Part shown: positions 1 through 28,511 of the stretch, in pieces
How the letters are laid out: every line of letters begins with the position of its first letter
Numbering within the stretch: the stretch's first letter is position 1
NCBI GenBank assembly: GCA_964450225.1
Contig: CAYVFT010000002.1
Location: 4,044 to 68,043 of the forward strand
DNA: 64,000 bases
Direction of reading: 5' to 3'
Source of the DNA: an uncultured Crenothrix sp.
GTDB lineage: Bacteria; Pseudomonadota; Gammaproteobacteria; Methylococcales; Methylomonadaceae
Notes under the pieces: model-generated
What the model saw: only the letters and a program-made list of their open reading frames with translations
What the model was told of the DNA's origin: nothing
Database searches by the model: none
Made by a program: the position numbers and the translations under genes

Positions 1-8146
<8,146 letters not shown>

Positions 8147-8203
8147 AGCCTATGGCACATCGCCTGCACTTCGAATTAACCTGTTTATCTGGAGTCGCTT
8201 CCA

Positions 8204-10373: not shown

Positions 10374-10404
10374 TTCAGCCAAACATTAAAATACAATAAT
10401 GAAT

Positions 10405-12697: not shown

Positions 12698-13920
12698 AGC
12701 AACTTCTCCAGCGGCGAGTATTCCGGTTCCAGCATGCGAAGACTGTTCTGCACTGCCAATTCTATCCCCTTGCGACAATAAAAACCCCCATTAACCTGTG
12801 TGGTATGAATTACCGTATTACGAAAACGCCGAAACAACTCCGCATCTGGAGAAGGGCGCTCTCGCCAGAAATCGTCAAGACTGCCCTGGAAAGTCAGACC
12901 GGGCAAATTGTAGATCGGATCGCTCAAGGCAATGGTAGGACAGTTCAGCCCTAACGAAAGTCCTCCCACCGTACTGTTAACCGTAACCGTCCCCCGCGCG
13001 CTCCTTAGCAAGACGCCCAAGTCCCCTGTCTCCATATAATCCACGCGACCTGCCAAAGCAAAGCGATCCGCTAACTCACGAATAAATTTCGGATAATTCA
13101 TCAACCCTATATCAAGCGGATGATTCTTGATCACAAGCTTGGCCTCCACCGGTGCATGTCGCGCAAAAGACTCTAATACAAACTCCATCACCCCAACCAT
13201 ATCATCAAAGCGGGAATGATCGCGAATCTGGGCATCACTTCCCAACTGAAGCGGTAAAATAAAAAAATGAGTAGAAGTTCGAATCAACTTATTTATCAAA
13301 TCGTTGTCTCGCGGCTTGTGAAAACGCAGCATAGGTAACCGGCAAGCATAACCGAAATACTCAACGCACGCATTCACTGACGCATGGGTATGATAGTGCG
13401 GGAAGAACAGCGGGTTCCAGAAACCCGCCATGTGATAGGCTACATCATGAGCCGCGCGAATTTCAAAAGACGATTGGAAAGGCTGTCCATCCCCATAATC
13501 TGGCAAACGTGCACCAACATCCCAGAACCAGTCCGGATCACGAGGCAGCAATGAGTGTCCGTTAACACCTTCCCGTTCCAAAGTCACCCAATAGGGGCGA
13601 AAGTAGCCTTCCTCAAAAACATGGGTACGAACCCCACACACTTCTCCGTGGTTCACTGCTGGACGGTGAACCGGACGACGGTCGCCAAACAAAATCTGGT
13701 CTGTAATTCCAAATTTACGGTACTTGTCATCAAGAAAATCCAGTACCCCGGAAACATGCCCACGATAATTCCAGGCACTTCTTCCGCCCCAATACAGCCA
13801 ATCTCCCGCATTAAAATTAACCTTGAAGACCCGGTGGCCATCAGCTTTAAGTCGATCCGCCAAACGCGCAAAAAAAGGCGAGCAAACCCCTTGTAAAAAT
13901 AAAAAGGAGCGCCGACTCAT
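12694..13920 (-). CDS. kpsS: KpsS-like capsule-type beta-Kdo transferase (Capsule_synth family)
   Basis: The protein can be aligned by eye along its length to E. coli KpsS: FLFLQG..PFF, FEEGYFRP, LPRDPDW, LQLGSDAQIRDHS, IKNHPLD, TVNSTVG, GLTFQG, FW. The start was set at ATG 13918-13920, which overlaps the kpsC-like TGA as ATGA. Confidence 0.78.
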   Translation of the reverse strand: MSRRSFLFLQGVCSPFFARLADRLKADGHRVFKVNFNAGDWLYWGGRSAWNYRGHVSGVLDFLDDKYRKFGITDQILFGDRRPVHRPAVNHGEVCGVRTHVFEEGYFRPYWVTLEREGVNGHSLLPRDPDWFWDVGARLPDYGDGQPFQSSFEIRAAHDVAYHMAGFWNPLFFPHYHTHASVNACVEYFGYACRLPMLRFHKPRDNDLINKLIRTSTHFFILPLQLGSDAQIRDHSRFDDMVGVMEFVLESFARHAPVEAKLVIKNHPLDIGLMNYPKFIRELADRFALAGRVDYMETGDLGVLLRSARGTVTVNSTVGGLSLGLNCPTIALSDPIYNLPGLTFQGSLDDFWRERPSPDAELFRRFRNTVIHTTQVNGGFYCRKGIELAVQNSLRMLEPEYSPLEKLL

Positions 13921-14960
13921 CGAACCCCCACGACACGGCGCAATACCATTCTGAAGATTTCCCGCCACCAGGGTTCAGCTCCCCCCGACTTGACCCGCCA
14001 GGCCAGAAGTTCATCCAGCGCCTGCTCTGGTGTAATCAACGCATCACTATAACGGCTCAGGTAAATGGGATACTCAATCAGCACCCCTGCCACCAGTTCG
14101 TCAAGCAATAACCGTCTGGTCCTCCGTAAATTAGGAGCAACATCTAACGTGAGTCCCCAGCCTGAATAAAAAGGTTGACCATAACATGTCACAGATTTGC
14201 CACGCAACAATGCCTCAAATCCGGCCAATGAGGTCAGCACATGAACTTCATCCACGGCCATGAGCAAATCCCCCATGACAGTATCCGTCACCAGCTCATC
14301 ACACCAGTACCGTGCCTTATCCTCCCCTGCCCCTTTGGCTCTCAATCTTGCCATCACATCAGGATGAGGTTTGTAAACGATATAAGCATCCGGATTAGCC
14401 TGACGAACAGCCTGCAATAACCCGACATTCGAACGAATCTTCGGTGCACCATAGAGCAGCGAAGCATCGCTCTCGACCTGGCCGGGTACCAGAATAACTT
14501 TTCCCACGCCATATGGACGTTGCCAGACAGAAATACCGACGTTGTACTTGGTGACCCCCTCGGCAACGATACGTTTCCGTAGCAAAGTGGCGCGTCGTAT
14601 CATAGCTGGATCGAACGCTGTATCAGCCAGCAAATGCTCAAGATCAGAAGGTCGGGTTGCGTCATAATATATGCCTCGACTATCCACCACCCAAGACATG
14701 GGCCGGATCAGATCGCAACCCAAGCCAACAGATCGCAAAAAACCATCCTCCACCCGCAATATCTTCACATCTTTGGCTAACTCGCCATTCACTGGCTTCA
14801 TACCCCAGACTAACAACACCCCACCCTCAGGAGCTTCGGCAGCGCTGGTTATGAACACGACTCGTACACCAGGAAAGCACTGGCGCACAGCCGATCTTTT
14901 CCAAGTGGAAAAATCAAGCGCATAAATCACTGATGCACAAAACAGACTAGCATGCCGCAA
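13917..14960 (-). CDS. kpsC: KpsC-like beta-Kdo transferase, single-domain (half-size) form
   Basis: LRVEDGFLRSVGLG, PGQVESDASLLYG, YKPHPDV, LTSLAGFEALLRGK, GQPFYSGWGLT. At 347 aa it has one Capsule_synth module, whereas classical KpsC has two. Confidence 0.7.
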   Translation of the reverse strand: MRHASLFCASVIYALDFSTWKRSAVRQCFPGVRVVFITSAAEAPEGGVLLVWGMKPVNGELAKDVKILRVEDGFLRSVGLGCDLIRPMSWVVDSRGIYYDATRPSDLEHLLADTAFDPAMIRRATLLRKRIVAEGVTKYNVGISVWQRPYGVGKVILVPGQVESDASLLYGAPKIRSNVGLLQAVRQANPDAYIVYKPHPDVMARLRAKGAGEDKARYWCDELVTDTVMGDLLMAVDEVHVLTSLAGFEALLRGKSVTCYGQPFYSGWGLTLDVAPNLRRTRRLLLDELVAGVLIEYPIYLSRYSDALITPEQALDELLAWRVKSGGAEPWWREIFRMVLRRVVGVR

Positions 14961-15117
14961 AACTCAACCACTACAAAAATACTTGAAAACAGAAAGGGTA
15001 AGAGTTTGCCACTGAACCTGGATAACTCGACGGCAAGAATAGAAACACGTAGGTTCAATTTTTCTCTCATTTTCGAGATAACTATCGCTCCACTAAGGGA
15101 ACCTCAATTTAATTTTA

Positions 15118-15846
15118 TCATAGCGAGGTGCATGGAGACGAAACAATCTGATTAATAACGGAGAATTTTTTATCCGCTACCAAGGCGCTGCAAACTCCCT
15201 CCTCCAACTCAAAGTCCAAAACATGCCATGCCGAAGGCGTCCCACATTTTGCAGGAATCCTTAAAAATTCTGCCGGATTTTCAGGGTTAATGACACACTG
15301 ATTTAATCCTAAAGCAATGCCATAACCTGTGGCTTTTACAAAGGCTTCTTTCTTTGTCCAGGTGCGGTAAAACGCCTGGTTTTTTTGGGTTTCCGGTAAC
15401 TGAATCCAGTAAGTGGCTTCTTCTTTAGAAAAACTTTTATTAACCAATCCAGATAAATTACTTCTTTGCCCACAAATCTCAACATCAACCCCCAGCCGAC
15501 AATTCCAACCCATGGCAATCATCCACCTGTCTGCTGAGTGAGATAAATTGAATGCCAACTCGGGATAATCAGCCAGATAGGGTTTACCATGTTCGGCTTT
15601 TTTTATCCTTATCTTTTCCGGCGACTGATTAAGCACTTGAGCCAACAGGTTCCTTAATCGTCCATGTATTTCTACATAGCGTTGGTGTAACAATGCATTT
15701 TTAAATTTTCCTGCCTGAGTTTGCTCGGCTTCGTCCAGAACACCCCAGTAAGCTTGATAATGCGTGTTCTCGCCGGTTATCTTGCCGTGCCATATTTCTA
15801 CTTCATTAACGCCCAACAACCGCCCTGCCCTCACCTCGTCTGTCAC
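15118..15846 (-). CDS. 4'-phosphopantetheinyl transferase, Sfp type
   Basis: GKPYL...FNLSHS, GVDVE, and WTKKEAFVKATG motifs. Confidence 0.85.
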   Translation of the reverse strand: MTDEVRAGRLLGVNEVEIWHGKITGENTHYQAYWGVLDEAEQTQAGKFKNALLHQRYVEIHGRLRNLLAQVLNQSPEKIRIKKAEHGKPYLADYPELAFNLSHSADRWMIAMGWNCRLGVDVEICGQRSNLSGLVNKSFSKEEATYWIQLPETQKNQAFYRTWTKKEAFVKATGYGIALGLNQCVINPENPAEFLRIPAKCGTPSAWHVLDFELEEGVCSALVADKKFSVINQIVSSPCTSL

Positions 15847-17479
15847 TGGCTGCTTCCAATGTCTTTACCCTTTTATTTAACAACACAGCCTGCATATCGC
15901 CATAGGGGTAGCGCGCTTGTTTCAGTTGATGCCCCATCTCGGCAAGTCCCTTAAGCTCGGAATCGGTCATTGCGCCTTTTTCATATTCGATCACATCGGG
16001 CATAAATTGATGATGGAAACGCGGCACTTGCACCCATGAATTAGGGCCATTGCCTTTGGCGAAATCCAGTGCTGCCAACAACACCATAGAAATAATACGA
16101 CTGCCGCCCGGTGTGCCCAGTACAGCAACACTGCTATCGTTTTCAAGAAAAGTAGGCGTCATGCTGGACAGCATACGTTTTCCGGGAGCAATGGCATTGG
16201 CAACGCCGCCAATCAGTCCGTAACCATTCATAGTACCCGGAAGACTGGCAAAATCATCCATTTCATCATTCAATAGCACACCTGTTCCTGGAGCAACAAA
16301 ACCTGAACCAAACGGAAAATTAATGCTGAGAGTTGCGGCAACCCGGTTGCCTTCATCATCAATAATTGAGAAATGGGTAGTATTGGTGCCTTCCGGTTGT
16401 TGCTCTATTTCACCTGACAGCATGTTGCTGGGCAAGGCTTTATCAGTCCGGATACTGCTGCGCAATCCCGCTGCGTAATCTTCACTCAACAAGCGTTTAA
16501 CGGGGATGTCAATAAAATCTGCATCACCCAGATATAAAGTACGATCGTGATAAGCGCGGCGCATTGCTTCAGTTACCAGATGTTTACGGGTAATCTCATC
16601 CGCTTTTTGCAAATCGTAACCCGATAAAACATTCAATGCTTCAATCAAAACAATGCCGCCGGATGATGACGGCGCCGCGCTGGTGATTTTTATACCGTTG
16701 TATTGGCCTCTAACCGGTTCCCGCTCGACAACCTGATAAGACTCAAGATCTTCTTCTGTCCAGATGCCGCCTGCTTTTTTGACACCCTTCACCAGTTTAT
16801 GGGCTATGTCTCCACTATAAAATCCGTCCCGACCTGATTCAGCCAGGTGTGTCAATGTCTTGGCCAAATCGGGTTGCCTGAGTATTGAATAGAGTTTGGG
16901 CAGCTTGCCGTCATTGAGAAATATCCCGGCTGTCGCCGGGTATTTATTGATCAACCCGGATCTGAATTTCAGTAACTTCAGGTAACGCTCGCCAATCGCA
17001 TAACCTGTCTGTGCATACCGGATTGCCGGCGCCAAACTTACGGCAAGCGGCAACTTCCCATATTTTTCTGCTAGATGCACCAATCCCGCAGGCATTCCAG
17101 GAATTGCAGCGGCTAAAGCGCCATCGAGGGATAATTTTGCAATTACCTTCCCTTCTTTATCCAGATACATATCCTTGTGAGCCGCCATGGGCGCTTTCTC
17201 TCGGCCATCAATAAGGGTCTCAAAACCGTCTTTTTCCCTGTGTAGCAACCAGTAACCGCCACCGCCCAATCCTGAGCCGGATGGCTCAACAACCGCCAAA
17301 GCCGCGCTAACCGCAACGGCCGCATCAAACACATTGCCGCCTTTATCCAGAATTTCAAATCCCGCAGCCGTTGCCAATGGATGCGCGCTGGCAATCGCCA
17401 CTTTATGCCCGTCCGCATAAACCTGCGACCCCCAGAAAAAAGCCATTAAAATAATGGCTGTATAACATTTATTTAACAT
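15806..17479 (-). CDS. ggt: Gamma-glutamyltransferase (periplasmic, with signal peptide)
   Basis: N-terminal signal-like MLNKCYTAIILMAFFWGSQVYA. The TTHFSIID autoprocessing/nucleophile Thr motif and GGSRI, both typical of GGT. The gene overlaps the PPTase start by 41 nt. Confidence 0.9.
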   Translation of the reverse strand: MLNKCYTAIILMAFFWGSQVYADGHKVAIASAHPLATAAGFEILDKGGNVFDAAVAVSAALAVVEPSGSGLGGGGYWLLHREKDGFETLIDGREKAPMAAHKDMYLDKEGKVIAKLSLDGALAAAIPGMPAGLVHLAEKYGKLPLAVSLAPAIRYAQTGYAIGERYLKLLKFRSGLINKYPATAGIFLNDGKLPKLYSILRQPDLAKTLTHLAESGRDGFYSGDIAHKLVKGVKKAGGIWTEEDLESYQVVEREPVRGQYNGIKITSAAPSSSGGIVLIEALNVLSGYDLQKADEITRKHLVTEAMRRAYHDRTLYLGDADFIDIPVKRLLSEDYAAGLRSSIRTDKALPSNMLSGEIEQQPEGTNTTHFSIIDDEGNRVAATLSINFPFGSGFVAPGTGVLLNDEMDDFASLPGTMNGYGLIGGVANAIAPGKRMLSSMTPTFLENDSSVAVLGTPGGSRIISMVLLAALDFAKGNGPNSWVQVPRFHHQFMPDVIEYEKGAMTDSELKGLAEMGHQLKQARYPYGDMQAVLLNKRVKTLEAASDRRGEGRAVVGR

Positions 17480-17650
17480 TTTTTACCTGATTGACAGTGG
17501 GCGAATAAACCTGGAAAACGATGATAGGAAGCAGAGCAAGATCGGACATGGGGTAATTCTTAAATTTTGGCAAGAAGGCCGAGTTTTCCATGGAAAACAT
17601 TCGTCAAATAGCAGCATCTTGTGTTGACGATGAGTTGATGCCGTTCGCAA

Positions 17651-17800
17651 TCAGCTGTATAGCTTACGAGGTTGAATATCCTTTATGGTCTGATAGTCAA
17701 AATCCTCCAGGATTTCTTCCGCCGTCAGGCCGAGGGCAAGATGTTCAAGCACATCGTAAAAGTAATCCGCAACCAACGGATACAAGGCTTGCTGCCCTGC
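17651..17800 (-). pseudogene. Possible remnant of a DUF433-type antitoxin-like gene (C-terminal half only)
   Basis: Hand translation of the minus strand gives ...YPLVADYFYDVLEHLALGLTAEEILEDFDYQTIKDIQPRKLYS*. This resembles the DUF433 C-terminal helix-turn-helix (LA.G.s.EEIL.dYP.L..eDI). There is no ATG, and stop codons lie immediately upstream. 34 nt downstream, an ATG at 17615-17617 opens MLLFDECFP..., reminiscent of DUF5615 N-termini but apparently frameshifted. Confidence 0.3.
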
Positions 17801-18228
17801 TTATCAGGTTCAAATAGTAAAAATGTCTTTAAAATTCATGGTGATTTCTCTCATGGGCACACTTTTAGTTTTGGTAATAGTTCTGGGCTTCGCCTTGCAC
17901 TGTAAATAAATCTCTGAATAAAATTACTTGCACCGCTTGCCGGTGGTCAACACGTACAAAAAAACCGTGTTACTGGCCTAAATTTTTACGACATGGCATC
18001 TGTGTAGTCCATACAATTTTTCAATCCTCACCCAATCAAGATATAAATTAGCTTCACTGGTTTTGGGATTCTGGATTAAAAAACAATTTGATTTACTATA
18101 ACGGTAATCCATCTGCTCTTCAACATTTCAGTTCAAGGCAATATCATACGCCAATAAATCATTGCTTTTTATGATCCCCAAAAATTTCGGAGTAAAATGA
18201 AGCGTTTGATTATTAATTACAACAAATA

Positions 18229-19620
18229 ATGAAGCCTAATCTATATGGTGTTTATCAGATTATTATGAGAAAACTAGTAATTAATAACCTGTCCGGCATG
18301 ATTTTTATTGCTTTAACAGGCATTTCACCTTTACAAGCTCAGGATTTATCTGAAACTTTTGAGCTGGCATTGCAGAATGATCCGGTTTTAAAAGAAGCTC
18401 AAGCCAATCAATTAGCAACCGGTGAATCCAGACCACAAAGTATTGCCCGGCTCCTGCCAAATCTTTCAGCGAATGGTTTAAGCAGCTCGGATTGGTTACG
18501 TAATCAAAAATATCATGTCGATTCGCGTAGTCCAGATTATCGAGGTCCTAATCAGAGTTACTGGAGCTTCGTTTTTAATATTAAATTAACCCAGCCCTTG
18601 TTTCACTGGGACTACTGGATTCAGTTAAGCCAATCCGACAATCAAATTGCCCAGGCTGAAGCTGATTATCAGGCGGTGTTACAAAAACTGATGGTTAGAA
18701 CGACTGAAGCCTATTTCAATGTGCTATCCGCTCAGGATACCTTGGAGCTTATCCTGGCAGAAAAGGAATCTATTGCTCGGCAACTTGATCAGGCGAAACA
18801 ACGATATGAAGTTGGCCTGAATTCAATAACCGATGTATACGAGGCGCAGGCAGGTTTCGATGATGCCATAGCTAATGAGATAGAAGCCGTTCACGACCTC
18901 GAAAATAAAAAAGAGGCCTTGCGCGAAATCATCGGTGACAATGAGGTACAGCTAAACTCTCTGGGCGCAACGCTCCCATTACTTAAACCTGAGCCCGCAA
19001 ACATTGCGGACTGGAGTACTACAGCTGAAACCAATAACTTCAATATCATTTCGGCACTCAATAAAGCGGAATTTTCGCGTAAATCGATCGATGTGCAACG
19101 CGCAGGACATTTGCCGCAGCTGGATATGGTTGCACTTTATAGTGATTCTGATGTGAACAGTACCTCCGGATTCCGGGGCGACACCCAAAGTGTAGGCGTG
19201 CAATTGAATATTCCTCTGTATGAAGGAGGCGCTGTAAACTCAAGGACCCGTCAGGCAAGCTACCAATACGAAGCTGCTAAAGAGAATTTAATTGCCGTAA
19301 AACGCGCCGTGAAACGCCAAGTTAAAGATGCATATAACGGCGTAGTAACCAATATTAGCCGTGTAGAAGCGCTAAAAACCGCAGTAACATCGGCAGAAAG
19401 CGCTTTGGAAGCGACAGAAGTCGGTTTTGATATTGGCACCCGAACCATGGTCGATGTGCTGGCCGAGCAAAAAAAATTATACCGGACCAAAAGAGATTTT
19501 TATCGTAGCCGTTATGATTATTTGATTAACAGTATCAAGTTAAAACAAGCATCCAGCGAATTGACTCAAAATGACCTTGTGCAGATTAACCGTTTATTGG
19601 TGTCAAATCGTAAAGGGTAA
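18229..19620 (+). CDS. TolC-family outer-membrane factor (type I secretion / efflux outer-membrane channel)
   Basis: Signal peptide (an alternative start at 18265 gives MRKLVINNLSGMIFIALTGISPLQA). It has the two-fold internal repeat of the OEP family, with AQ..L..A......L.. heptad-rich segments, and is TolC-like in length (about 450 aa). Confidence 0.85.
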   Translation: MKPNLYGVYQIIMRKLVINNLSGMIFIALTGISPLQAQDLSETFELALQNDPVLKEAQANQLATGESRPQSIARLLPNLSANGLSSSDWLRNQKYHVDSRSPDYRGPNQSYWSFVFNIKLTQPLFHWDYWIQLSQSDNQIAQAEADYQAVLQKLMVRTTEAYFNVLSAQDTLELILAEKESIARQLDQAKQRYEVGLNSITDVYEAQAGFDDAIANEIEAVHDLENKKEALREIIGDNEVQLNSLGATLPLLKPEPANIADWSTTAETNNFNIISALNKAEFSRKSIDVQRAGHLPQLDMVALYSDSDVNSTSGFRGDTQSVGVQLNIPLYEGGAVNSRTRQASYQYEAAKENLIAVKRAVKRQVKDAYNGVVTNISRVEALKTAVTSAESALEATEVGFDIGTRTMVDVLAEQKKLYRTKRDFYRSRYDYLINSIKLKQASSELTQNDLVQINRLLVSNRKG

Positions 19621-19633
19621 CAATGATTGAAGA

Positions 19634-20587
19634 TCAGGTTTTTGGTGATGGCAATTTTTCGTCGTTAATGAAATTTACCTTGCATCGAAGTCCCGCTGAA
19701 ATTTTATGACCGGGATTGGGCAAGTTCAACCTGATGCCAAAGGTACCGCTCGACGCATGAATGACTGAATCAACGACAACGACCTTCGCATGATAAACCT
19801 CATCGACTGGCTGTTCCGCTTTAACTTTCGCTTGCATTCCCACATGGATACTGCCTAACAATTGTATTGGGGCGATCACTTCGACGTTCAGTGGATCAAT
19901 TTGTGCGATTTTTACGACCGGTTGATCCTCCACGTATTCACCTGGTGATTTCATGCGTTCGACCACAACGCCATCTATGGTACTTTTTAGATAACGCTGA
20001 TCAAGCACTTGCTGGGCATGTGCCAGTTCCAATTGAGACAAGTGTTGTAATTCAATAGCTTTTTTATGTTCATATTCAGCTATCACACTCAATGTTTTTG
20101 CATCATCATATTCATGAAGCGAAGCAAGCTTTTTGTTAAATAAGGTTTCCAATTGTTCGGCCGAGCGCTTTTTCATTTCAAACTCGGCTTTTCGGGCATG
20201 AATATCGCCTTCCATATCGGCACGCGCCTTCGTTAATCGAACACTTGCTTCTTCAATGCCTGATTTCAATTTAGCAATCACCTGGCCTTTTTTGACAATA
20301 TCTCCTCGCTCAACATTCACCACTTCCAGAACACCTTGCACTGGACTACTAATCTCGACCACGTCATGAGGCTCAATAACGCAATCCAGTGCATTACCCT
20401 CCTCTGCCGCGGCAGGTGACACGACCATCGTCAGAATGCCAAGAAGCATAAGGAAATCTCTAAAAACCCGCGCTCTCTTCGGGCAAAGGTATCTACACAA
20501 ATTGGCGCTCTTTCTCCCCTGTGGCAGGGAGAAGGAGCTTTTTGAATTATTAGAAATTCTCATAAATTTATTAATTGTTTTTTCCAC
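19634..20587 (-). CDS. Membrane-fusion (HlyD/efflux periplasmic adaptor) protein, short form
   Basis: TM/signal-anchor segment LMLLGILTMVVSPAAA, lipoyl-like half-motifs (VERGDIVKKGQVIAKL ... IDGVVVER), a coiled-coil hairpin and a beta-barrel region. It lies 10 nt downstream of the SecA-like gene. Confidence 0.8.
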   Translation of the reverse strand: MEKTINKFMRISNNSKSSFSLPQGRKSANLCRYLCPKRARVFRDFLMLLGILTMVVSPAAAEEGNALDCVIEPHDVVEISSPVQGVLEVVNVERGDIVKKGQVIAKLKSGIEEASVRLTKARADMEGDIHARKAEFEMKKRSAEQLETLFNKKLASLHEYDDAKTLSVIAEYEHKKAIELQHLSQLELAHAQQVLDQRYLKSTIDGVVVERMKSPGEYVEDQPVVKIAQIDPLNVEVIAPIQLLGSIHVGMQAKVKAEQPVDEVYHAKVVVVDSVIHASSGTFGIRLNLPNPGHKISAGLRCKVNFINDEKLPSPKT

Positions 20588-20597
20588 AGTTGTATCC

Positions 20598-22595
20598 TTA
20601 CTCTGATTTGCCAGAAAACGCTAAAAGATTTTGTAAGTTTATATCCATTTTTAGTAATCCGGCACGAATAGCGTCATGATGTCGTTCGGCCCGTGTTTGT
20701 GTTCTTTGAAACAGAGCATAGGCCATTAATTGATAACCTGGCGCATTGCTTTTCGCCATTTTCTTCACTGCGGCGATCAACCAGGAAAAGCCATATTTTT
20801 TCAGGATTTCGTCCTCTAAAGACAACAACATTTCATAACTGCCCGCATCACCTTGCCGACCACAACGTCCAAATAATTGCCGGTCTATTCGCCTAGCTTC
20901 GTGACACTCGGTTACAATTACGTGCAGGCCGCCCAATTCATTAATACCCGGTGCGAGCTTGATGTCGGTTCCCCTACCTGCCATATTGGTGGCTACTGTG
21001 ATGCAGCCCCTGGTTCCAGCATTTTGAATGATGCTTGCTTCATCAGCATCTTGCCGGGCGTTCAAGACACGATGCGGCAAGCCTTTCATAGACAATAGCC
21101 GTCCCAAGTGTTCCGATGCTTCTACCGAACGGGTTCCGACCAACACAGGTCGTCCCTGTTGATGAATATCACTAATTCGTTGCGCGATACCTTCCCATTT
21201 TTTTTCAGCAGATGCGTAGTAAATCGTCGGTAACTGCTTACTTTGAATCGGTTTGTTTGGAGGAATCCTGATAACGGGAATCCGGTAAACTGAAAACAAC
21301 TCTTTTCTTACTTCCTTGGCAGTTCCTGTCATACCGGCCAAATGCAAATAACGTCGAAAAAAAGTCTGGTAACTGATACGTGCAATGGTTTCTTTCTGAT
21401 CACTCATTGCGCATTCTTCCTTGGTTTCTATCATTTGATGCAAGCCTTTTTCCCAGGAGCGGTCGGGCATAACCCGCCCAGTAAACTCGTCGATAATCAC
21501 TACCTTGCCGTCTTTCACCAGATAATGGATATCTTTCAAAAACAAATGCTGTGCTGATAATGCCTGTAATACCAATTCGCGGCTTCGTTTGGTAGCCGAC
21601 CAAATACCTGTTAATGGCTCAACCATCTGCTTAACGCGAAGCAATCCTGACTCAGATAATTCTATTGTGCGGTTACGATGATTGATAAAAAAATCATGGC
21701 CTGATGTTAATTGTCCCGCAATCTGCAGGGCCTGCTGATAAACCAGAAGCTGTTCGAGTGACTGTTTTTCCCGGGAAAGTATCAAGGGTGTCCTGGACTC
21801 GTCAATAAGTACACTGTCCGCTTCATCAACTATTGCAAAACATAAACCTCGCAACAGCAAGCGGGACGTTTTGGCTTCCGGCTGGGCATATAAGCGGTTC
21901 AACTGAAGCAGCAAGCGGCTGCCTTTACGCCCCAAGACCATACGATCCTTCAAATAATCAAAAGTCAGTTGTTTGTTACTACAATAAGTGATATCACAGG
22001 CATAGGCGGCCTGGCGAGCAGGAAAATCCATACCTTCCGTTATGGTGCCAACGCTTAAGCCGAGAGTTTGATAAATTGGCTCCATCAATTCAGCATCACG
22101 CTTCACCAGATAATCATTGACCGTGACGATATGCACCGGAACGCCCGCCATTGCAGCCGTACAGGCGGGTAATGTCGCCGTCAGTGTTTTCCCTTCACCG
22201 GTATTCATTTCCGCAATCATACCTTTCAACATAACCAAACCGCCTATGAGCTGAACATCAAAATGCCGCATAAACAGTTTTCTTCCGGCGATTTCCCGAA
22301 TTAAAGCGAAGGCTTCAATCACCGCCTCATCCTCAAAGCCTCTTAAATGTAGCCTTGATTTGATGTGTTTAATGTGTTTTTCGAGTTCGTCATCATTCAG
22401 TTTTTCAAGTCGTTCGCATGATTGATTGACCGCTACGGCAAAAGCATCAAGTGACTTTTGATTATGTTTAAACGTCAGCTTAGCGAGGTTAATTGCCCAT
22501 GACAATGATTGGTCAAGAAAACCTGCAGGGGGGCTATTTTTCTCCGGGTACAGACCCTGTAAGATGCCGGGTTTTAAAACAGAACTGCTTGCCAT
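20598..22595 (-). CDS. SecA paralogue (DEAD motor plus preprotein-crosslinking domain) lacking the C-terminal translocation domains
   Basis: MRHFDVQLIGG; Walker A MNTGEGKT (22185-22208); TVNDYL; Walker B region VDEADSVLIDESRTPLILS; MTGTA; TNMAGRGTDI; RIDRQLFGRCGRQGDAGS. The protein ends about 68 aa after this last motif (665 aa total), inside what would be the first part of the SecA helical scaffold. Confidence 0.85.
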   Translation of the reverse strand: MASSSVLKPGILQGLYPEKNSPPAGFLDQSLSWAINLAKLTFKHNQKSLDAFAVAVNQSCERLEKLNDDELEKHIKHIKSRLHLRGFEDEAVIEAFALIREIAGRKLFMRHFDVQLIGGLVMLKGMIAEMNTGEGKTLTATLPACTAAMAGVPVHIVTVNDYLVKRDAELMEPIYQTLGLSVGTITEGMDFPARQAAYACDITYCSNKQLTFDYLKDRMVLGRKGSRLLLQLNRLYAQPEAKTSRLLLRGLCFAIVDEADSVLIDESRTPLILSREKQSLEQLLVYQQALQIAGQLTSGHDFFINHRNRTIELSESGLLRVKQMVEPLTGIWSATKRSRELVLQALSAQHLFLKDIHYLVKDGKVVIIDEFTGRVMPDRSWEKGLHQMIETKEECAMSDQKETIARISYQTFFRRYLHLAGMTGTAKEVRKELFSVYRIPVIRIPPNKPIQSKQLPTIYYASAEKKWEGIAQRISDIHQQGRPVLVGTRSVEASEHLGRLLSMKGLPHRVLNARQDADEASIIQNAGTRGCITVATNMAGRGTDIKLAPGINELGGLHVIVTECHEARRIDRQLFGRCGRQGDAGSYEMLLSLEDEILKKYGFSWLIAAVKKMAKSNAPGYQLMAYALFQRTQTRAERHHDAIRAGLLKMDINLQNLLAFSGKSE

Positions 22596-22628
22596 GAGAA
22601 GTAACCTTATACAACAAGAGAGCTTTAA

Positions 22629-24776
22629 TTAAACACTAAATGTTCTCAAAAATAACTGCCGCGCCAATCTATACCATTGCATAGCCAGAGATTCCCGGCC
22701 ATGATTAAAGCGGATATAAACACGTTCACCGATGTTTCTAACATCGGTACCTGGCGGAAACGCCAATTCAATATGAAAAACGGGCTCAAAGGCTTTTTCA
22801 CCTTTTTCATCGGCCGGATTAACCGGAATCGTCCCGCCCCCCGTTATTCCCAAAGCCGGGCTGGGCAACACATCGGATGCCGCCGGTATCTCCCGTAATA
22901 TTTTGGCCGGATATAGATGTTTTATATTGTCTGCCAGGCGCACCTGTACATTCCGGGTTCGCTCCTTGACCAGGCCGATATTATCTTGGGTGACTACCGT
23001 ACGAATGGTCGTTATAGGGTAATTGACCACATAACCCACTAAATCCCCTTTATGCAAAAATCGATCTTTCAAGTCTTCGGCATGCGGCACGATAAAAACG
23101 CCTTTGCCCTGACTTTTTAACGTCAGATTATCTATTCGCTCGGTCACTTCTGCCAATTCAGCTGTTACCGACCTCATCTGTTCTTCAATGATCTGTGCTT
23201 TAACCCTGTCTTCCATCCAGGATTCTTTAAGTTTTGCCTCTAATTCATCAAGCTGATTATCAAGGATATTTTTTTTCAATTTTAATATTGGATCGTCCAG
23301 CTCAATCAAAATTTGGTCACGTACCACAACAGTATTGGAGCCGGCCAGGATTTTAGTTACAAAACCTTCCGTCTTGGCGCGCACTTTAGCCTGTTCTGGC
23401 AGCCAGACAACGCCTTCAGCATAGGTATTTAAAGGCATGGGAAATAGCAGCAGAAAGCCCAATATAATAAGCGCTAAAGTCACACTAGTGGCAATCGTCC
23501 TGACCCTGCTTTGCTGAATCATTGGATTGCTGAAAACAAACCGGAAACACTTGGTGGCCGGCACCAAAATCATGGTTCCAACCGCCCATAGAGCGAGGAT
23601 AACACCAATCAGAAAAAACTGGCTAGCGACAAAAAAGGTTATGGAAAAAGTAATCAGCATTCGATAACAGAATGAAGCTATTCCATAAATCAAAAACCAG
23701 CTCCGTTCACCTTTAGCGGTAACTGGAGAATTGACCGTCTTTACACCAAATACATAATGTTGAAACAGGTAGCCAAGGTAATTATTGGCACGACTGGCTA
23801 AATTGGGGATTTCGATCAAATCCGCAAAAATATAATATCCATCAAAGCGCAAGAGAGGATTACCATTAAAGAAAATCGTCGATGCGCCACCAATTAACAT
23901 GACATTGTATGCAATCGCCCTGACAATACCTTGCTCCACATTAAGCCATATAAACAACGCTATCGCTGCAAGAAACATCTCCACAGCCATCCCCGCTGCC
24001 CCGACAATGGCTCGCTTTTTTTTATCCCGAAAACCCCAGGCACTGGAGGCATCAACATAGGGAATAGGCATAAAAACCAATAGCATCATGCCCATTTCAT
24101 GGACTTCACCACCCCACACCTTGGTGGAAAAAGCATGTCCAAATTCATGCAGAAGTTTTACCAGTGGATAGACAAAGAACAGCAGCAGCAGATTGCCGGG
24201 AGCCCAGACCCGATCCGATGCGTCCCTGGATAGGTCAACCCAATGGGAAGCTGCCAGTATCAATGCCGTGCTTACAACAAGCACCCATACCAGTATGCCA
24301 AGCCAGCCAAACAAAGGGCGAACCAAAAAAAGCCATCGGTCCAGAAAAGCGTCAGGATCCCACAACGGAAACCTTATAGACAATGGGCTCCATAGTCGTT
24401 GCAACCATTTACCCCGTTGTTTACGCTCATACCGTTGAAAAAGATCCAGAGTATCTGGCGGTACATCACATATCAATAAATCACTACCGTGCAATTGGCC
24501 CAACAACTTGACCAATTCATCCTGTGTGGGCGCATCATCGCCTAAATGCTCAAGCGCCAATTCCCAAATCTCTTGGAAATTACGAGACCCATTCATTAAT
24601 GAAATAATGTAATGAGCCTGAGGAGAAAATCGATGATTCAGACTGCTGGAATAATCCTGCAGGATATACCAGAGTTGGCCACGGTAGTGATGGCGATGAA
24701 TTTGAATATGTCCTTTTAACCTCGGCTGCAAACTGGCGATTCGATACCAGGAAGAACTAAACATCGATTCAGACAT
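22629..24776 (-). CDS. Fusion protein: PqqD/RRE-like N-terminal domain (weak) + M50 site-2 metalloprotease membrane core + HlyD-type membrane-fusion periplasmic domain
   Basis: HEFGH (24135-24149) followed by NGNPLLRFDGYY (the NxxPxxxxDG M50 motif), and multiple TM helices. The C-terminal ~270 aa has lipoyl halves and a coiled coil (LDELEAKLKESWMEDRVKAQIIEEQMRSVTAELAEVTERI). The N-terminal ~100 aa follows a PqqD-like pattern (LMNGSRNFQEIWE...DELVKLLGQL). Confidence 0.75.
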   Translation of the reverse strand: MSESMFSSSWYRIASLQPRLKGHIQIHRHHYRGQLWYILQDYSSSLNHRFSPQAHYIISLMNGSRNFQEIWELALEHLGDDAPTQDELVKLLGQLHGSDLLICDVPPDTLDLFQRYERKQRGKWLQRLWSPLSIRFPLWDPDAFLDRWLFLVRPLFGWLGILVWVLVVSTALILAASHWVDLSRDASDRVWAPGNLLLLFFVYPLVKLLHEFGHAFSTKVWGGEVHEMGMMLLVFMPIPYVDASSAWGFRDKKKRAIVGAAGMAVEMFLAAIALFIWLNVEQGIVRAIAYNVMLIGGASTIFFNGNPLLRFDGYYIFADLIEIPNLASRANNYLGYLFQHYVFGVKTVNSPVTAKGERSWFLIYGIASFCYRMLITFSITFFVASQFFLIGVILALWAVGTMILVPATKCFRFVFSNPMIQQSRVRTIATSVTLALIILGFLLLFPMPLNTYAEGVVWLPEQAKVRAKTEGFVTKILAGSNTVVVRDQILIELDDPILKLKKNILDNQLDELEAKLKESWMEDRVKAQIIEEQMRSVTAELAEVTERIDNLTLKSQGKGVFIVPHAEDLKDRFLHKGDLVGYVVNYPITTIRTVVTQDNIGLVKERTRNVQVRLADNIKHLYPAKILREIPAASDVLPSPALGITGGGTIPVNPADEKGEKAFEPVFHIELAFPPGTDVRNIGERVYIRFNHGRESLAMQWYRLARQLFLRTFSV

Positions 24777-24788
24777 GGCGATTCTCCG

Positions 24789-26942
24789 TTATAAGCCTTC
24801 TGGCCACCAGGTCCATAAGGATAAACGCAGCCAATCAAGCAGATTTTTACTCCAAATCCAGATTAATTTTCGCTCCCCTATTCGTATTTTGCCTACGCCT
24901 TCCATGCCGGGTCGCAAAAAGTCCAATTTTTTTTCCAGTTCCGCTTCAACACGAAAATAATTCCGCCCTTCCTTTGTTTCTGATACCGGCGTAATTTTAT
25001 TTACACTAAAAGGAATTACTGTATCTGAGAGACCTGTTAAAACCAACTCACCTTTTTGAGCAACTTTAATATCGGAAATATCTCGCTCATCAACTTCCAA
25101 AACAACCCGATAATCTTCGAGCGGTGCAATTTCAAACAATACGTCACCTCGTTGCGATGGCGCTCCCAGTGATTGACTTAAATCACCCGATACAATGACG
25201 CCGTCAAACGGTGCTTTTATTTGAATTCTTGCCAGTTGTGCATCCGTTATATCCAACTGAGCTTGCGCCTGTCCGAGTTGAGCATTCAGAACACTGATTT
25301 TACTGCGTTCAGCCTGACCCAAAGCATCCCGGTACTCTTTAAGGTATTGTTCTTTCTGGCTTTCCCATTTGGTCCTTTCAAGTATCAGATCTGTGTCATC
25401 CAGTTTAGCTAATAACGTGCCCTTCTTGACTATGTCGCCCGGTCGAACATGCGCTTCGCTGATATAACTATCGAAAGGTGTAGCAATGACCCTCTGAATG
25501 GACCCTTCCAGTTTAGTATCTGCGGCAATACGGTAATCGCCTGTGGCAAACAGACAAAACAGCAATGCACCCAATACCAATAAAGCAGCCAGTTTTAGTC
25601 CTCCATGCGCAGGCCCTAACAAGCATGCAAAAAAGTTCTTAATAGAAAGCCACGCTTTTTGGCCTAACCATAAATCTTCCTTTCTTTTGGTTTCCAGAAT
25701 TGGTCCAATCAACGTAGCGATAGTCTCACATAATTCCACTGTTTGACGCTCAAACGATTGTCCGGGTGGACGCTCCAGGGTGATGGCTCCAAACACATTG
25801 CCATTACTACAGAACGGAATCGTACACACACTGCCACTTCCCTGTTCACGCATAAGCTTTTCGTGGCACCTGACAATTTGTACGCTCTTTTCTTCCAACG
25901 GTGGATAAACTACGGAAGCCTTTTGCTCCATGGCTTCATCCATGGACAAGCCTATGCTTTGAATCAAGTTGGATTTTTTGGCGAAATCGACACTGTGCGA
26001 TAGTGCAGTCACCTGGATATATTTACCCTTAAGAAAACCGATACTAACCCTATCGCATTTCAGCAATGTGGCCAATTCGGTCGCCACTGCGGTAACGGAA
26101 GCCTGGAATTTTTCATGCTCCAGACTGGAGGTGATCAACTCAAGAACAGTAACTAACTGCTGATTTTCGGGCGTATATTTCTTGCCTTCTTCACGACGGA
26201 CAAACAGTTCCAGCCAGGATATTCCCCATTGCAGTTGTCTCATACTAGCTCGCATTAAATGCTCTGCACGGGCAACAATTTCAAACGCAACCACACCGTA
26301 AAGTTGCTCACCAACCAGCAAAGGAAAACCGATATAACAGACAGGTATTTTTAATCCGGGATCTTGTTGACCCTGATTTCTTAATACCCCTCGCCTTTCA
26401 TGTAAAGCAAGCTCGGCTGCCTCGGTTAATCCCAAAGATCCTCGCTGCCCCTCTGGCCAAAAAGAAATAGGTACAAAAGAACCGCTATCAGGTTTACCAA
26501 GAACTACAATACCCCGAGTCACGCCGCTAAGCATTGCACATTGCAGGCTCAACCAGAAACGAGCTGCTGTTTCAAGTGAATTTGCGTCGTTAAACTGCTT
26601 CCATAACTTTTGGTAATGGGTCTGAAATCCCGTATCGTTCTCAAGAAATGATACACCCGATAGTAATCCCCCTCCTTGCTTGGGTTTAATCCAACAGACT
26701 TGAGCCCGTTGACTAACCAAACCAAAAGGCATGCTATAGGTCATTGCAAGGACATTGTATTTTTCCAAATAGGGTCTGGAAGCCTCAGCAACGAGTACTC
26801 CTAACCCTCCGTCAGACTTATTCTCAATAGTACCAATAATTTCGTGGGAATCGCATTGAATAATGACCGTGCAGCCGGATTCAACAGGAATGCGCTCCTC
26901 GTTGCGGAGCTCAGCCCTGTATGCTTGTTTTTGTGTATCCAT
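24789..26942 (-). CDS. Fusion protein: PilZ (c-di-GMP-binding motifs intact) + GAF + TM + HlyD-type membrane-fusion domain
   Basis: PilZ RxxxR = RNEER (26892-26906) and [DN]xSxxG = NKSDGG (26805-26822). A GAF-like region (ATLLKCDRVSIGFLKGKYIQV...), the TM helix LKLAALLVLGALLFCLFA, then an HlyD region (VRPGDIVKKGTLLAKLDD, coiled coil, IKAPFDGVIV). Confidence 0.75.
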   Translation of the reverse strand: MDTQKQAYRAELRNEERIPVESGCTVIIQCDSHEIIGTIENKSDGGLGVLVAEASRPYLEKYNVLAMTYSMPFGLVSQRAQVCWIKPKQGGGLLSGVSFLENDTGFQTHYQKLWKQFNDANSLETAARFWLSLQCAMLSGVTRGIVVLGKPDSGSFVPISFWPEGQRGSLGLTEAAELALHERRGVLRNQGQQDPGLKIPVCYIGFPLLVGEQLYGVVAFEIVARAEHLMRASMRQLQWGISWLELFVRREEGKKYTPENQQLVTVLELITSSLEHEKFQASVTAVATELATLLKCDRVSIGFLKGKYIQVTALSHSVDFAKKSNLIQSIGLSMDEAMEQKASVVYPPLEEKSVQIVRCHEKLMREQGSGSVCTIPFCSNGNVFGAITLERPPGQSFERQTVELCETIATLIGPILETKRKEDLWLGQKAWLSIKNFFACLLGPAHGGLKLAALLVLGALLFCLFATGDYRIAADTKLEGSIQRVIATPFDSYISEAHVRPGDIVKKGTLLAKLDDTDLILERTKWESQKEQYLKEYRDALGQAERSKISVLNAQLGQAQAQLDITDAQLARIQIKAPFDGVIVSGDLSQSLGAPSQRGDVLFEIAPLEDYRVVLEVDERDISDIKVAQKGELVLTGLSDTVIPFSVNKITPVSETKEGRNYFRVEAELEKKLDFLRPGMEGVGKIRIGERKLIWIWSKNLLDWLRLSLWTWWPEGL

Positions 26943-27299
26943 GCTTATGATTTAATAACGATTACAAACTGAAATGTTGAAAACGGCCAGCAACTTCAGC
27001 CGGAATAACATAAAAGACTTATCCTCAAGATGACCCGTTTTACTGTGAAACAGTTGCATAGTTCCCACACTCCGGTATTGGAGGGTCCATCTAACAACAC
27101 TACGGCGTTGTGTGACGCTAGAGCGCCATCAGTGACATTCCCACGCCGGAGCGTATCGTTATACACAGCTTTCATGCAAAGTACGACAATCCGCCCCCCC
27201 TTTTTTCAAATGGAGGTGAGCTCATGGTTTGGACTTGTGTATAAAAATGAATGCCGGAACGTGGGAATAAACTAACAATTAGTGAATTGACCAAAAAAT

Positions 27300-28097
27300 C
27301 TAGTGCAATCCCTCTTTTGGAGGCAGATCACTTTCATCAACTGCCATAGTTTCTTCGTCGGGTTTTTTATCTGCATCATGAGCGGCAGTTTTTTCTACCA
27401 TCGAATTAAAATTTTTCATTGATTGTAAATGCAGATAAAGCAATTCCAACTCATCAGTTTTAAAGAGTGCAACAATCTGGTCATCAGGCAAATTTTTCAA
27501 ACGATCACGGTTGACTGCCATAAATCCGGCTAATCGTAATTGCTGTCCGGAGTTCAAAGTAAACTGGGCTTGCATCGGCTCCAACAAATCCAGCTCTTGT
27601 AATTTTTTACAAAACATTTGGGTACGACGAAACTGTCCCTGGTAGTCATTAACAAAGCGCAATACATTTTCCAGATATTGAGTACGTTCACCATCAGCAT
27701 CGAATAAATGCTCCCCTCGACCATCCTGATTGCACCCGGCAAATTCCTCGTCTATGCACAGCGTAAATGTCGATTCGTCCGAATTACTCGAAAAAACAAA
27801 TGGATAGCGCCGGATAAAGGCAGGAATATATTTTGCCTTCCAGCCGTTCGTTTCGTTCAAATAAAGGTTCTCATTATCGCGCATACCCAGAATGGCAATA
27901 GGCATCATCGTCTCATCTTTTCCTGCAAACACAATACTATATTCTGCTGCCGCGTGAGGAAACTCCACCGCTACCAGCGGCACCGAATTCACTTGCCGGG
28001 CAAAGGCATAATCAGCACCAGTCTTGACGGACCAACCTTTATGTCGCTGGCTGGATAGTGGCACGGCTCTTTCATATATTAATAACTGTGTGCTCAT
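27300..28097 (-). CDS. SapC-family protein (function unknown)
   Basis: Strong match by eye to the SapC family pattern: VPL......H.....V......FA......VPLV..EF..AA.EY.IVF; YIPAFIRRYPFVF; LCIDE. A GAGGA Shine-Dalgarno lies 9 nt upstream of the ATG. Confidence 0.8.
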   Translation of the reverse strand: MSTQLLIYERAVPLSSQRHKGWSVKTGADYAFARQVNSVPLVAVEFPHAAAEYSIVFAGKDETMMPIAILGMRDNENLYLNETNGWKAKYIPAFIRRYPFVFSSNSDESTFTLCIDEEFAGCNQDGRGEHLFDADGERTQYLENVLRFVNDYQGQFRRTQMFCKKLQELDLLEPMQAQFTLNSGQQLRLAGFMAVNRDRLKNLPDDQIVALFKTDELELLYLHLQSMKNFNSMVEKTAAHDADKKPDEETMAVDESDLPPKEGLH

Positions 28098-28229
28098 TGA
28101 ATCATTTCCTCATTTGATTATTATTTATTGAACTCATAAGACGCTTCTCCATGTATTTTTGACTACTTAACCGAGAACATCGGTTTAACCCCCTGATTAA
28201 AACGCTCTTCCCTTCCTTGGCAGAGCTTG

Positions 28230-28258
28230 AGTATAGAAAATTAAATTTTCATTAGCAA
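28230..28258 (-). promoter_or_regulatory. Candidate sigma70-type promoter upstream of the SapC-family gene
   Basis: On the minus strand: TTGCTA (28253-28258), a 17-nt spacer, then TATACT (28230-28235), about 130 nt upstream of the ATG at 28097. This is a pattern match only. Confidence 0.25.
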
Positions 28259-28478
28259 TAGAATATTGAACAGGAAAATTACCTTGCACAGAATATTATT
28301 GATCGTTTGTTTTAATTTCCATTCTTAAGGTTATATTCACCTAAAAACATCAATTGAAGTTTGCGCTGTAGTCCGTTCGTGCCAAACTGTGTGCTTGTCA
28401 AACAGTCGATGCCTAAACGGACTTCAATGCACTCACACTTTGGGTGAGCCTTTCTGGAATATAAATTATTGAACAATA

Positions 28479-28497
28479 CCGGTATATTCTTTACCGG
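28479..28497 (-). terminator. Weak hairpin immediately after the giant-gene stop codon
   Basis: CCGGTA (28479-28484) and TACCGG (28492-28497) form a 6-bp stem with a 7-nt loop, 14 nt downstream of the TAA (28512-14). It is followed by an AT-rich but not U-run tail, so it is not a convincing intrinsic terminator. Confidence 0.2.
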
Positions 28498-28511
28498 AAA
28501 TCACCTGATGA

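Follow-up and report, generated by a model that had tools for sequence, protein, structure and literature searches.

A 64,000-nucleotide stretch of DNA from an uncultured Crenothrix sp. (contig CAYVFT010000002.1), referred to here as the window, encodes a SecA paralogue of 665 amino acids that ends within the helical scaffold. This short SecA retains the first and second nucleotide-binding domains (NBD1 and NBD2), the preprotein cross-linking domain (PPXD), and nearly the whole of the long scaffold helix, and it lacks the wing domain, the other scaffold helices including IRA1/two-helix finger, and the C-terminal tail. It is encoded in a conserved operon with three membrane fusion proteins (MFPs), one of which also carries an M50-type intramembrane protease domain, next to genes for a TolC-family channel and for a giant RTX/adhesin-like protein. 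On balance, we think it probable that the short SecA serves as the cytoplasmic ATPase in a TolC-dependent, type I–like exporter that works without an ABC transporter and for which the giant RTX-type neighbor is the cargo. The family, its locus, and the core of this hypothesis were published in 2015 by Kamneva, Poudel, and Ward (PLoS One, PMC4452313); the window adds one more member, a PilZ-bearing variant.

A Pfam scan of the short SecA matched SecA_DEAD at residues 43 to 433 (E = 1e-103), SecA_PP_bind at residues 285 to 390 (E = 3e-29), and P-loop_SecA/NBD2 from residue 456 (E = 5e-54), whereas neither SecA_SW (wing and scaffold) nor SEC-C was detected. The PPXD is inserted in NBD1; a first-pass annotation made from the DNA letters alone had described a PPXD-like insert between the motor signatures. 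That annotation had also reported these signatures as intact, and the Walker A motif MNTGEGKT lies exactly where it was placed; VDEADSVLIDESRTPLILS, TNMAGRGTDI, and RIDRQLFGRCGRQGDAGS were likewise all found in the protein. The GEGKT and DEAD elements, the arginine of MAGRGTD, and the RIDxQLxGRxGRQG motif were invariant across 50 homologues. In a BLASTP comparison with SecA of Escherichia coli MG1655, residues 56 to 665 of the short SecA aligned with residues 28 to 665 of the E. coli protein at 39% identity, with the alignment leaving off at residue 665 of 901, where the short protein stops. The corresponding region of Bacillus subtilis SecA comprises residues 33 to 601.

Truncation of the short SecA is native. 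Nearly all of the 120 best homologues (clustered at 90%) are 658 to 673 amino acids long and cover the full query, with the exception of a few fragments. When 1.8 billion cluster representatives were searched exhaustively with HMMER, about 140 of the best 150 representatives of 50%-identity clusters were 645 to 690 amino acids long, down to identities of 39 to 42%. A family motif consisting of a hydrophobic residue, A or S, F, S or T, G, two variable residues, and E is recognizable at the C-terminus in most representatives and lies directly at the stop codon. With residues 660 to 901 of E. coli SecA as the tblastn query, no counterpart of the missing part was detected in 27 related loci or in the window, where the best match had E = 1.2, and the gene located 3' of the short SecA gene encodes an MFP at every locus examined. 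The conserved length, the C-terminal motif, the negative tblastn result, and the downstream MFP gene together exclude that an ordinary SecA gene has been truncated to a pseudogene, split in two, or interrupted by a frameshift in sequencing. Such an explanation, which has the short length in its favor and nothing else, would have to accommodate a length kept in hundreds of homologues from many phyla; we consider its probability negligible and rejected it. The stop codon is therefore genuine, and no split gene follows it, as the first-pass annotation had argued. The 10-nt gap to the next MFP gene to which that annotation appealed, however, holds only for a GTG start at position 20587, and a start at Met47 of the MFP is more plausible.

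We obtained a structure model of the short SecA with AlphaFold2 on the basis of a 50-sequence family alignment (predicted local distance difference test score, or pLDDT, of 80; predicted template modeling score of 0.77). Foldseek confirmed the SecA fold, and the top superpositions were with SecY-engaged, closed-clamp SecA structures, 6itc (TM-score of 0.79) and 5eul (0.77); the model also matched the engineered fragment SecA-N68 (5k9t). No transmembrane segment was found in the short SecA. The model ends with helices at residues 621 to 649 and 651 to 657 followed by a disordered tail. The absence of the wing, two-helix finger, and tail was thus correctly recognized in the first-pass annotation, but its placement of the stop at the beginning of the scaffold helix was not, given that the helix is nearly complete. 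Its distance of about 68 amino acids from the last NBD2 motif to the stop should also be corrected, since the motif ends at residue 586 and 79 residues remain.

Three segments of the short SecA combine conservation within the family with low confidence in the model: the N-terminus, the NBD1 insertion at residues 222 to 245, and the C-terminal tail at residues 654 to 665. The pLDDT was below 50 at residues 1 to 16 and 224 to 240. The N-terminus contains the motif PGIxxGxYPE at residues 9 to 18, in which G14, Y16, and P17 are invariant. All three segments are missing from, or cannot be aligned with, canonical SecA, and we regard the terminal peptides and the NBD1 insertion as candidate docking elements.

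The relationship to canonical SecA was analyzed with a neighbor-joining tree (573 shared columns, 200 bootstraps) of 49 short proteins and 46 canonical SecAs, the latter a narrow outgroup of E. coli SecA, B. subtilis SecA (residues 33 to 601), and 44 gammaproteobacterial SecAs from a metagenome scan. All 200 bootstraps separated the 49 short proteins, together with a protein of 1240 amino acids (P0235), from the 46 canonical SecAs. P0235 groups with the short family although it is full-length, contains SecA_SW, and has an enlarged NBD2; given its position and the narrow outgroup, strict monophyly of the short family with respect to all full-length SecAs is not established. Over the shared columns, the E. 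coli and B. subtilis proteins are 61% identical to each other, whereas either is about 40% identical to the short family. The short SecA falls below the equivalog cutoffs for canonical SecA (PRK12904, score of 629 versus 814; TIGR00963, 619 versus 800) as well as below those for SecA2 (TIGR03714, 509 versus 930; TIGR04221, 437 versus 725; TIGR04397, 564 versus 1085; NF012136, 421 versus 1100). No Sec genes, including SecY2, were found in the 64-kb window, and the neighbors of the short SecA gene encode MFPs, the M50 protease, TolC, and SapC.

The short SecA thus resembles canonical SecA of E. coli and B. subtilis in NBD1, PPXD, NBD2, and the long scaffold helix (39 to 40% identity), as well as in the retention of all ATPase motifs and the PPXD tyrosine, and differs from it in the loss of the wing, IRA1/two-helix finger, and C-terminal linker/zinc domain, in its N-terminus, and in the 20-residue NBD1 insertion. 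Removal of the C-domain (IRA1) de-represses the ATPase activity of SecA. In content, motor plus PPXD, the short SecA is nearly the same as SecA-N68, a C-terminally truncated E. coli SecA, but the latter is a laboratory fragment that cannot translocate, whereas the short SecA is a natural, conserved protein in which the scaffold helix is retained and which possesses terminal motifs and partners of its own. Another parallel is provided by giant proteins of Omnitrophota and Actinobacteria in which SecA_DEAD and PPXD domains are embedded, with neither scaffold nor wing, and for which self-export has been suggested (West-Roberts et al., bioRxiv 10.1101/2023.11.21.568195). Both cases connect giant proteins with a SecA motor and preprotein-binding domain not accompanied by scaffold and wing, but the domains are fused within the giant protein in the former (in cis), whereas the window encodes a separate 665-residue protein in an MFP/M50/TolC operon (in trans). 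One giant protein of this kind, P0263 (4930 amino acids, with SecA_DEAD/PPXD and multiple Fis-type helix-turn-helix domains), was also among the homologue matches, and its SecA domain fell on the canonical side of the neighbor-joining tree, apart from the short family.

On the minus strand of the window, the genes follow one another in the order giant open reading frame (ORF), SapC, PilZ-GAF-MFP with one transmembrane helix, PqqD-like/M50/MFP (M50-MFP), short SecA, and small MFP, with intergenic gaps of 10 to 33 nt among the last four. The order GAF-MFP, M50-MFP, short SecA, small MFP was kept wherever the contig allows in 25 loci (44 to 88% identity) from a scan of 185,579 species genomes. 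These loci belong to Methylococcales, Desulfobulbales, Rhodocyclaceae, Oceanospirillales, Cellvibrionales, and Chromatiaceae and include, among others, Methylomicrobium, Methylobacter, Desulfocapsa, Zoogloea, Amphritea, Neptunomonas, Halioglobus, and Pseudomaricurvus; the closest named relatives are Methylomicrobium, Methylobacter, and metagenome-assembled genomes (MAGs) of Methylococcales. The same order is present in Methylococcus sp. EFPC2, Nitrospina gracilis 3/211, a MAG labeled Gemmatimonadota, and plasmid pMSC49a of Methylosinus sp. C49. In all, M50-MFP, GAF-MFP, and small MFP flank the short SecA in one order in the approximately 30 related loci examined, which span several phyla. The pMSC49a locus encodes, in order, a protein of 8,847 amino acids, DUF3467, an MFP, a "PqqD family protein," a "prepilin peptidase" that is in fact the short SecA misnamed, an MFP, and TolC. 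The TolC gene is adjacent to the module in the window and lies directly after it in pMSC49a. A DUF3467 gene (about 105 codons) is located between the giant gene and the GAF-MFP gene in 15 loci (5465 to 5776 in L001, 15556 to 15876 in L111, and 13 more); DUF3467 was not found in the window, where, as in the closest relative, SapC occupies that place. Neither DUF3467 nor SapC gave a meaningful match among Protein Data Bank sequences. No ABC-transporter domain was found among ORFs of at least 100 amino acids in positions 1 to 28500 of the window or among the flanking genes of the related loci that were checked.

The M50-MFP, which is 714 to 716 amino acids long in more than 100 homologues, begins with a β3-α3 domain whose match to PqqD is weak in the window (E = 0.007) and exceeds the threshold in some homologues; it is the Methylosinus orthologue of this protein that PGAP names as belonging to the PqqD family. 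The match of its protease part to Pfam Peptidase_M50 is below the gathering cutoff (17.9 versus 27.2), and the best NCBIfam match of this part is the daptide intramembrane metalloprotease model (E = 9e-44, below cutoff). The family is annotated at JGI as a YydH-like "putative peptide zinc metalloprotease." In addition to the zinc-binding motif, the sequence NGNPLLRFDG at residues 304 to 313 fits the pattern NxxPxxxxDG, with N304, N306, P307, D312, and G313 invariant in 47 homologues; both motifs lie in the multi-helix membrane domain. The C-terminal 270 residues superpose in Foldseek on MexA, MacA, and AcrA, all adaptors that dock on TolC. The PilZ and GAF region of the GAF-MFP is cytoplasmic. 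PilZ is restricted to the Methylococcales subgroup, in which the protein has 711 to 738 amino acids, compared with 610 to 650 for the GAF-MFP without PilZ found elsewhere. For the small MFP, the likely true start is Met47, which is followed by the signal peptide–like sequence MLLGILTMVVSPAAA, and the GTG start is doubtful. A G+C-rich stem-loop with a 12-bp stem is present at 20507 to 20538 on the minus strand, in the interval between the SecA stop and the probable Met47 start (20449 to 20597).

Cyclic nucleotide–related genes recur near the module. In addition to PilZ on the GAF-MFP of the window, a PAS-GGDEF-EAL gene adjoins the Amphritea modules, a guanylate cyclase/PilZ gene adjoins the Methylococcus module, and the Methylosinus module has an adenylate/guanylate cyclase gene in its vicinity. 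The sites are 24789 to 26942 on the minus strand of the window, 14061 to 16202 on the minus strand of L017, 15130 to 16227 in L001, and 26339 to 28276 in L111.

The giant gene of the window is free of stop codons in frame from its first ATG (63854) to the window edge, and the 48 upstream codons continue an internal repeat motif. Given the missing stop and the continuing repeat, the gene must be longer than the window, and the N-terminus of its product lies outside. The encoded protein is rich in Ala, Gly, Thr, Val, Ser, and Asp and contains 0.1% Cys. It has 19 GGxGxD motifs; Pfam HemolysinCabind was not matched in the three parts scanned, whereas the orthologous putative cargos in L001, L029, and L030 carry this domain. 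The last 260 or so residues (28512 to 29300, minus strand) contain a metzincin-like HEIGHVLGYTH sequence followed by a conserved tail. The C-termini of the putative cargos are of two conserved types: the HEIGHVLGYTH type is common to the window, L001, L003, L018, L019, and L025, and a second, unrelated type (LAGWKLA...RWDE...DWEQA..NIK.H) is found in the proteins of Amphritea, Neptunomonas, and Chromatiaceae. Every related locus with enough flanking sequence has, directly beside the module, a very large ORF that is still open where the fetched DNA ends; it lies upstream of the module in about 17 loci and on the downstream side in L008, and most of these ORFs share the RTX-like block that spans residues 8,300 to 9,800 of the giant protein in the window. 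In complete records, the giant genes as called encode 7,631 and 8,847 amino acids with RTX, OmpA, or LamG domains. The conserved adjacency and the repeat content suggest that the giant RTX-type neighbor is likely to be the cargo of the short-SecA module. Large genes that start with DUF4347 were also observed downstream of the module in Desulfocapsa and an uncultured gammaproteobacterium (L008, 12911 to 15607; L013, 16051 to 18246; both on the plus strand), with that in L008 continuing into cadherin-like and Big_9 domains; such genes may represent a second cargo class.

The arrangement is reminiscent of type I secretion of giant RTX adhesins (LapA with LapBCE; HlyBD-TolC), with which it shares an MFP and TolC duct, SapC-type accessory genes, and a presumed cargo with RTX-like repeats and a conserved C-terminal region. 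It differs in that the ABC transporter is absent and a SecA-type ATPase is present instead, and in that there are three different MFP proteins rather than one, with an M50 protease domain as the membrane part. We infer the interactions, the direction of transport, and the regulation of such a machine as follows. The PqqD/M50-MFP fusion protein would constitute the inner-membrane platform, and the MFP domains of M50-MFP, PilZ-GAF-MFP, and small MFP, docked on TolC, would form the periplasmic duct. The PPXD clamp of the short SecA would hold the unfolded cargo, with ATP cycles feeding it into the membrane platform. Canonical SecA depends on the parts missing from the short SecA for its connection to SecY, SecB, or lipid and for auto-inhibition; as docking elements, these parts have probably been replaced by the short conserved peptides at the two termini. 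The short SecA would then act independently of SecYEG, and it may dock on the M50-MFP or the GAF-MFP, as the first-pass annotation also proposed. The PqqD-like domain probably recognizes a conserved segment in the C-terminal region of the cargo, the M50 active site probably cleaves this segment, and PilZ/GAF probably gate the machine in response to cyclic di-GMP or another ligand. More tentatively, and with some doubt, we suggest that the module (together with DUF3467 or SapC) may be a distinct class of secretion system for giant RTX/adhesin proteins of about 8,000 to more than 11,000 amino acids, characterized by a SecA-type motor in place of an ABC transporter, recognition of a conserved C-terminal cargo segment in the manner seen for ribosomally synthesized and post-translationally modified peptides (RiPPs), M50-mediated processing during export, and PilZ/GAF-dependent gating by cyclic di-GMP.

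Several considerations weigh against an exporter of this kind. The M50/S2P fold is that of a protease, and we know of no protein-conducting channel built on it; passage of a giant polypeptide through such a fold would, to our knowledge, be unprecedented. Current models of canonical SecA assign the two-helix finger a central part in pushing or gating, we are aware of no finger-less SecA with demonstrated translocation activity, and the engineered N68 fragment hydrolyzes ATP but does not translocate. The pairing of PqqD with M50 is typical of the maturation of small peptides (RiPPs). Adjacency of the giant gene is a correlation, and the N-terminus of the putative cargo lies outside the window, so that it may carry a Sec signal peptide. 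Furthermore, the M50, SecA, and HlyD genes of Methylorubrum (M.) extorquens AM1 showed no detectable expression in exponential phase (PMC4452313).

The module may instead serve in ATP-driven processing and efflux of peptides, with the short SecA threading or presenting a peptide or protein segment to the M50 protease, much as unfoldases are paired with membrane metalloproteases, and a small product rather than the giant protein leaving through the MFP-TolC duct; in another version, the module would only trim or release the giant protein without transporting it. The PqqD-like domain and the invariant M50 catalytic residues are a hallmark of RiPP leader recognition and cleavage, the daptide protease model is the best NCBIfam match of the M50 part (below cutoff), the family carries the YydH-like annotation, and MFP-TolC ducts commonly export small molecules and peptides. 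However, no conserved small precursor ORF was seen beside the module, DUF3467 at about 105 amino acids is unlike a precursor peptide, the consistent neighbor is the giant RTX-type gene, and the PPXD clamp of SecA is built for long unfolded chains. We thus consider peptide processing unlikely. Retention of the long scaffold helix and PPXD would also suit a SecA2-like accessory motor that still uses the housekeeping SecYEG and may pair with canonical SecA in a heterodimer; it would carry the giant protein across the inner membrane in the first of two steps, and the MFPs and TolC would take over from the periplasm. SecA2-only systems that rely on the housekeeping SecYEG do exist in Actinobacteria and Firmicutes, and the secondary SecA_DEAD clade was reported to be sister to actinobacterial SecA2 (both in PMC4452313). 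The short SecA, on the other hand, has no two-helix finger, wing, or C-terminal tail, it shows no relationship at its N-terminus to the lipid-binding segment that begins E. coli SecA, it scores far below the cutoffs of the SecA2 models of NCBIfam, and its strict operon link is to MFPs and M50 rather than to Sec components, with no SecY2 or accessory Sec genes nearby, all of which renders this option improbable.

It is similarly improbable, in our estimation, that the short SecA stays in the cytosol, physically separate from the membrane machine, and acts on the giant protein as a holdase, unfoldase, or regulator, with transport being energized by other means such as the proton-motive force or an unlinked ABC transporter. 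The absence of a transmembrane segment, the chaperone-like activities of canonical SecA in the literature, and the need of a giant, aggregation-prone cargo to be kept unfolded are compatible with such a role. But the gene is placed tightly, and is probably translationally coupled, between two genes for membrane proteins across phyla, the conserved disordered termini are suggestive of docking, and the loci do not encode an alternative energizer.

Kamneva and colleagues described "secondary SecA_DEAD domain proteins" that lack SecA_SW or possess only a fragment of it, and they proposed that SecA_DEAD serves as the ATPase in place of an ABC transporter and that the M50 protein serves as the membrane pore (PMC4452313). 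The protein of the window shares with this family the SecA_DEAD plus PPXD architecture, a clade apart from canonical SecA, and a locus of GAF-HlyD, Peptidase_M50, and HlyD/biotin-lipoyl proteins with OEP and SapC as optional components, as well as the same proposed role; SapC and a small conserved hypothetical protein are listed in S2 Table of the 2015 study. That study does not include Methylococcales in its tables and does not mention PilZ, which is an additional N-terminal domain of the GAF-MFP in the window, giant neighbors as cargo, the PqqD-like domain, or conservation of the M50 catalytic motifs, and terminal motifs specific to the short SecA were not found in it either. The link to giant cargo, together with the recognition and processing logic, is absent from the earlier description. 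The present analysis adds this link, and with it the PqqD-like domain, invariance of the M50 active site, and the distinctive SecA termini, as leads rather than proof. In the literature searched, we found neither a follow-up to the 2015 study nor an experimental paper on the short-SecA family. The 2015 study is an independent published analysis that reached the same conclusion as the first-pass annotation. The interpretation in that annotation is supported, in that alignment and structure prediction against SecA yielded a native short architecture and the computational tests that were able to overturn it came out in its favor. It did not include the 2015 description of the family and locus, the giant gene as likely cargo, or the assignment of TolC, SapC, and the small MFP to the same system.

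The family comprises at least 140 clusters at 50% identity, and its members are annotated inconsistently by PGAP, as "prepilin peptidase," "DEAD/DEAH box helicase," "SecA," or "hypothetical protein." Cultured Methylosinus, Mesorhizobium, Rhizobium, Sinorhizobium/Ensifer, and Rhodobacteraceae also carry short-SecA modules, which are located on large plasmids or chromids (for example, NZ_AP022333.1, 174172 to 176088). Further tractable carriers are Methylorubrum extorquens AM1 (META1p2399-2402), Ruegeria pomeroyi DSS-3 (SPO2714 locus), Bordetella avium 197N (BAV1940-1943), and Amphritea balenae JAMM 1525. One Chlorobi species with a secondary SecA_DEAD protein is listed in PMC4452313. In Chlorochromatium, a horizontally acquired "secA" (Cag_1676) is co-expressed with giant genes (bioRxiv 10.64898/2026.03.19.712371); Cag_1676 may be a short SecA.

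Table 1. Coordinates of the short SecA, its segments, and the associated genes in the window.
Feature	Position	Strand	Remarks
Short SecA ("secondary SecA_DEAD domain protein")	20598–22595	minus	665 aa; stop TAA at 20598–20600
Family-specific N-terminal segment, residues 1–55	22431–22595	minus	No alignment to the N-terminus of E. coli SecA
Walker A MNTGEGKT, residues 130–137	22185–22208	minus	G133, G135, K136, and T137 invariant in 50 homologues
Family-specific NBD1 insertion (~20 aa), residues 222–245	21861–21932	minus	Alignment gap in E. coli and B. subtilis SecA
Walker B/DEAD-like VDEAD, residues 256–260	21816–21830	minus	D257, E258, and D260 invariant
PPXD, residues 285–390	21426–21743	minus	Y358 (E. 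coli Y326) invariant
NBD2, residues ~456–612, with TNMAGRGTDI and RIDRQLFGRCGRQGD	20760–21230	minus	Variable insert of E. coli missing
Retained long scaffold helix, residues 621–657	20625–20735	minus	Aligns with E. coli SecA ~620–657
Conserved C-terminal tail ...LLAFSGKSE	20601–20624	minus	L658, A659, F660, and G662 invariant; predicted disordered
PqqD-like N-domain, M50-type intramembrane metalloprotease (at least 5 transmembrane helices), and periplasmic MFP	22629–24776	minus	715 aa
HEFGH zinc-binding motif of M50 domain, residues 210–214	24135–24149	minus	Invariant in 47 homologues
PilZ, GAF, one transmembrane helix, and MFP	24789–26942	minus	717 aa
Small MFP	19634–20587	minus	RND_mfp TIGR01730, 123 bits versus cutoff of 94.9
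TolC-family outer-membrane channel	18229–19620	plus	Convergent with operon; TIGR01844, 319 bits versus cutoff of 225
SapC-family protein	27300–28097	minus	Position held by DUF3467 gene in most other loci
Giant RTX/adhesin-like gene, presumed cargo	28512–64000	minus	At least 11,780 codons; frame open at window end

The left flank of the module (31 to 17479) contains the 3' part of a type I polyketide synthase gene (AT-DH-ER-KR-ACP) and genes for an aminotransferase, a glycosyltransferase, a methyltransferase, a sulfatase-family protein, a short-chain dehydrogenase/reductase, two KpsC/KpsS-like capsule proteins, a phosphopantetheinyl transferase, and a gamma-glutamyltranspeptidase. This gene content resembles that of a cluster for a lipid or polysaccharide, with no relation to the SecA module. 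Within positions 17400 to 28700, no Rfam match was obtained at E ≤ 1, and scans for promoters and terminators were at chance level.

For the window alone, the result is a modest one, the addition of a further member to a family described in silico in 2015. If the proposed exporter is real, bacteria of many phyla would use a TolC duct to export proteins that are among the largest known, and a stripped-down SecA would supply the power, an additional energizing principle for tripartite secretion that involves neither an ABC transporter nor SecYEG. The family, which occurs in cultured and tractable strains and is often plasmid-borne, would then provide a natural test of what SecA is capable of without a two-helix finger, and the exporter could explain how adhesins of more than 10,000 amino acids arrive at the cell surface.

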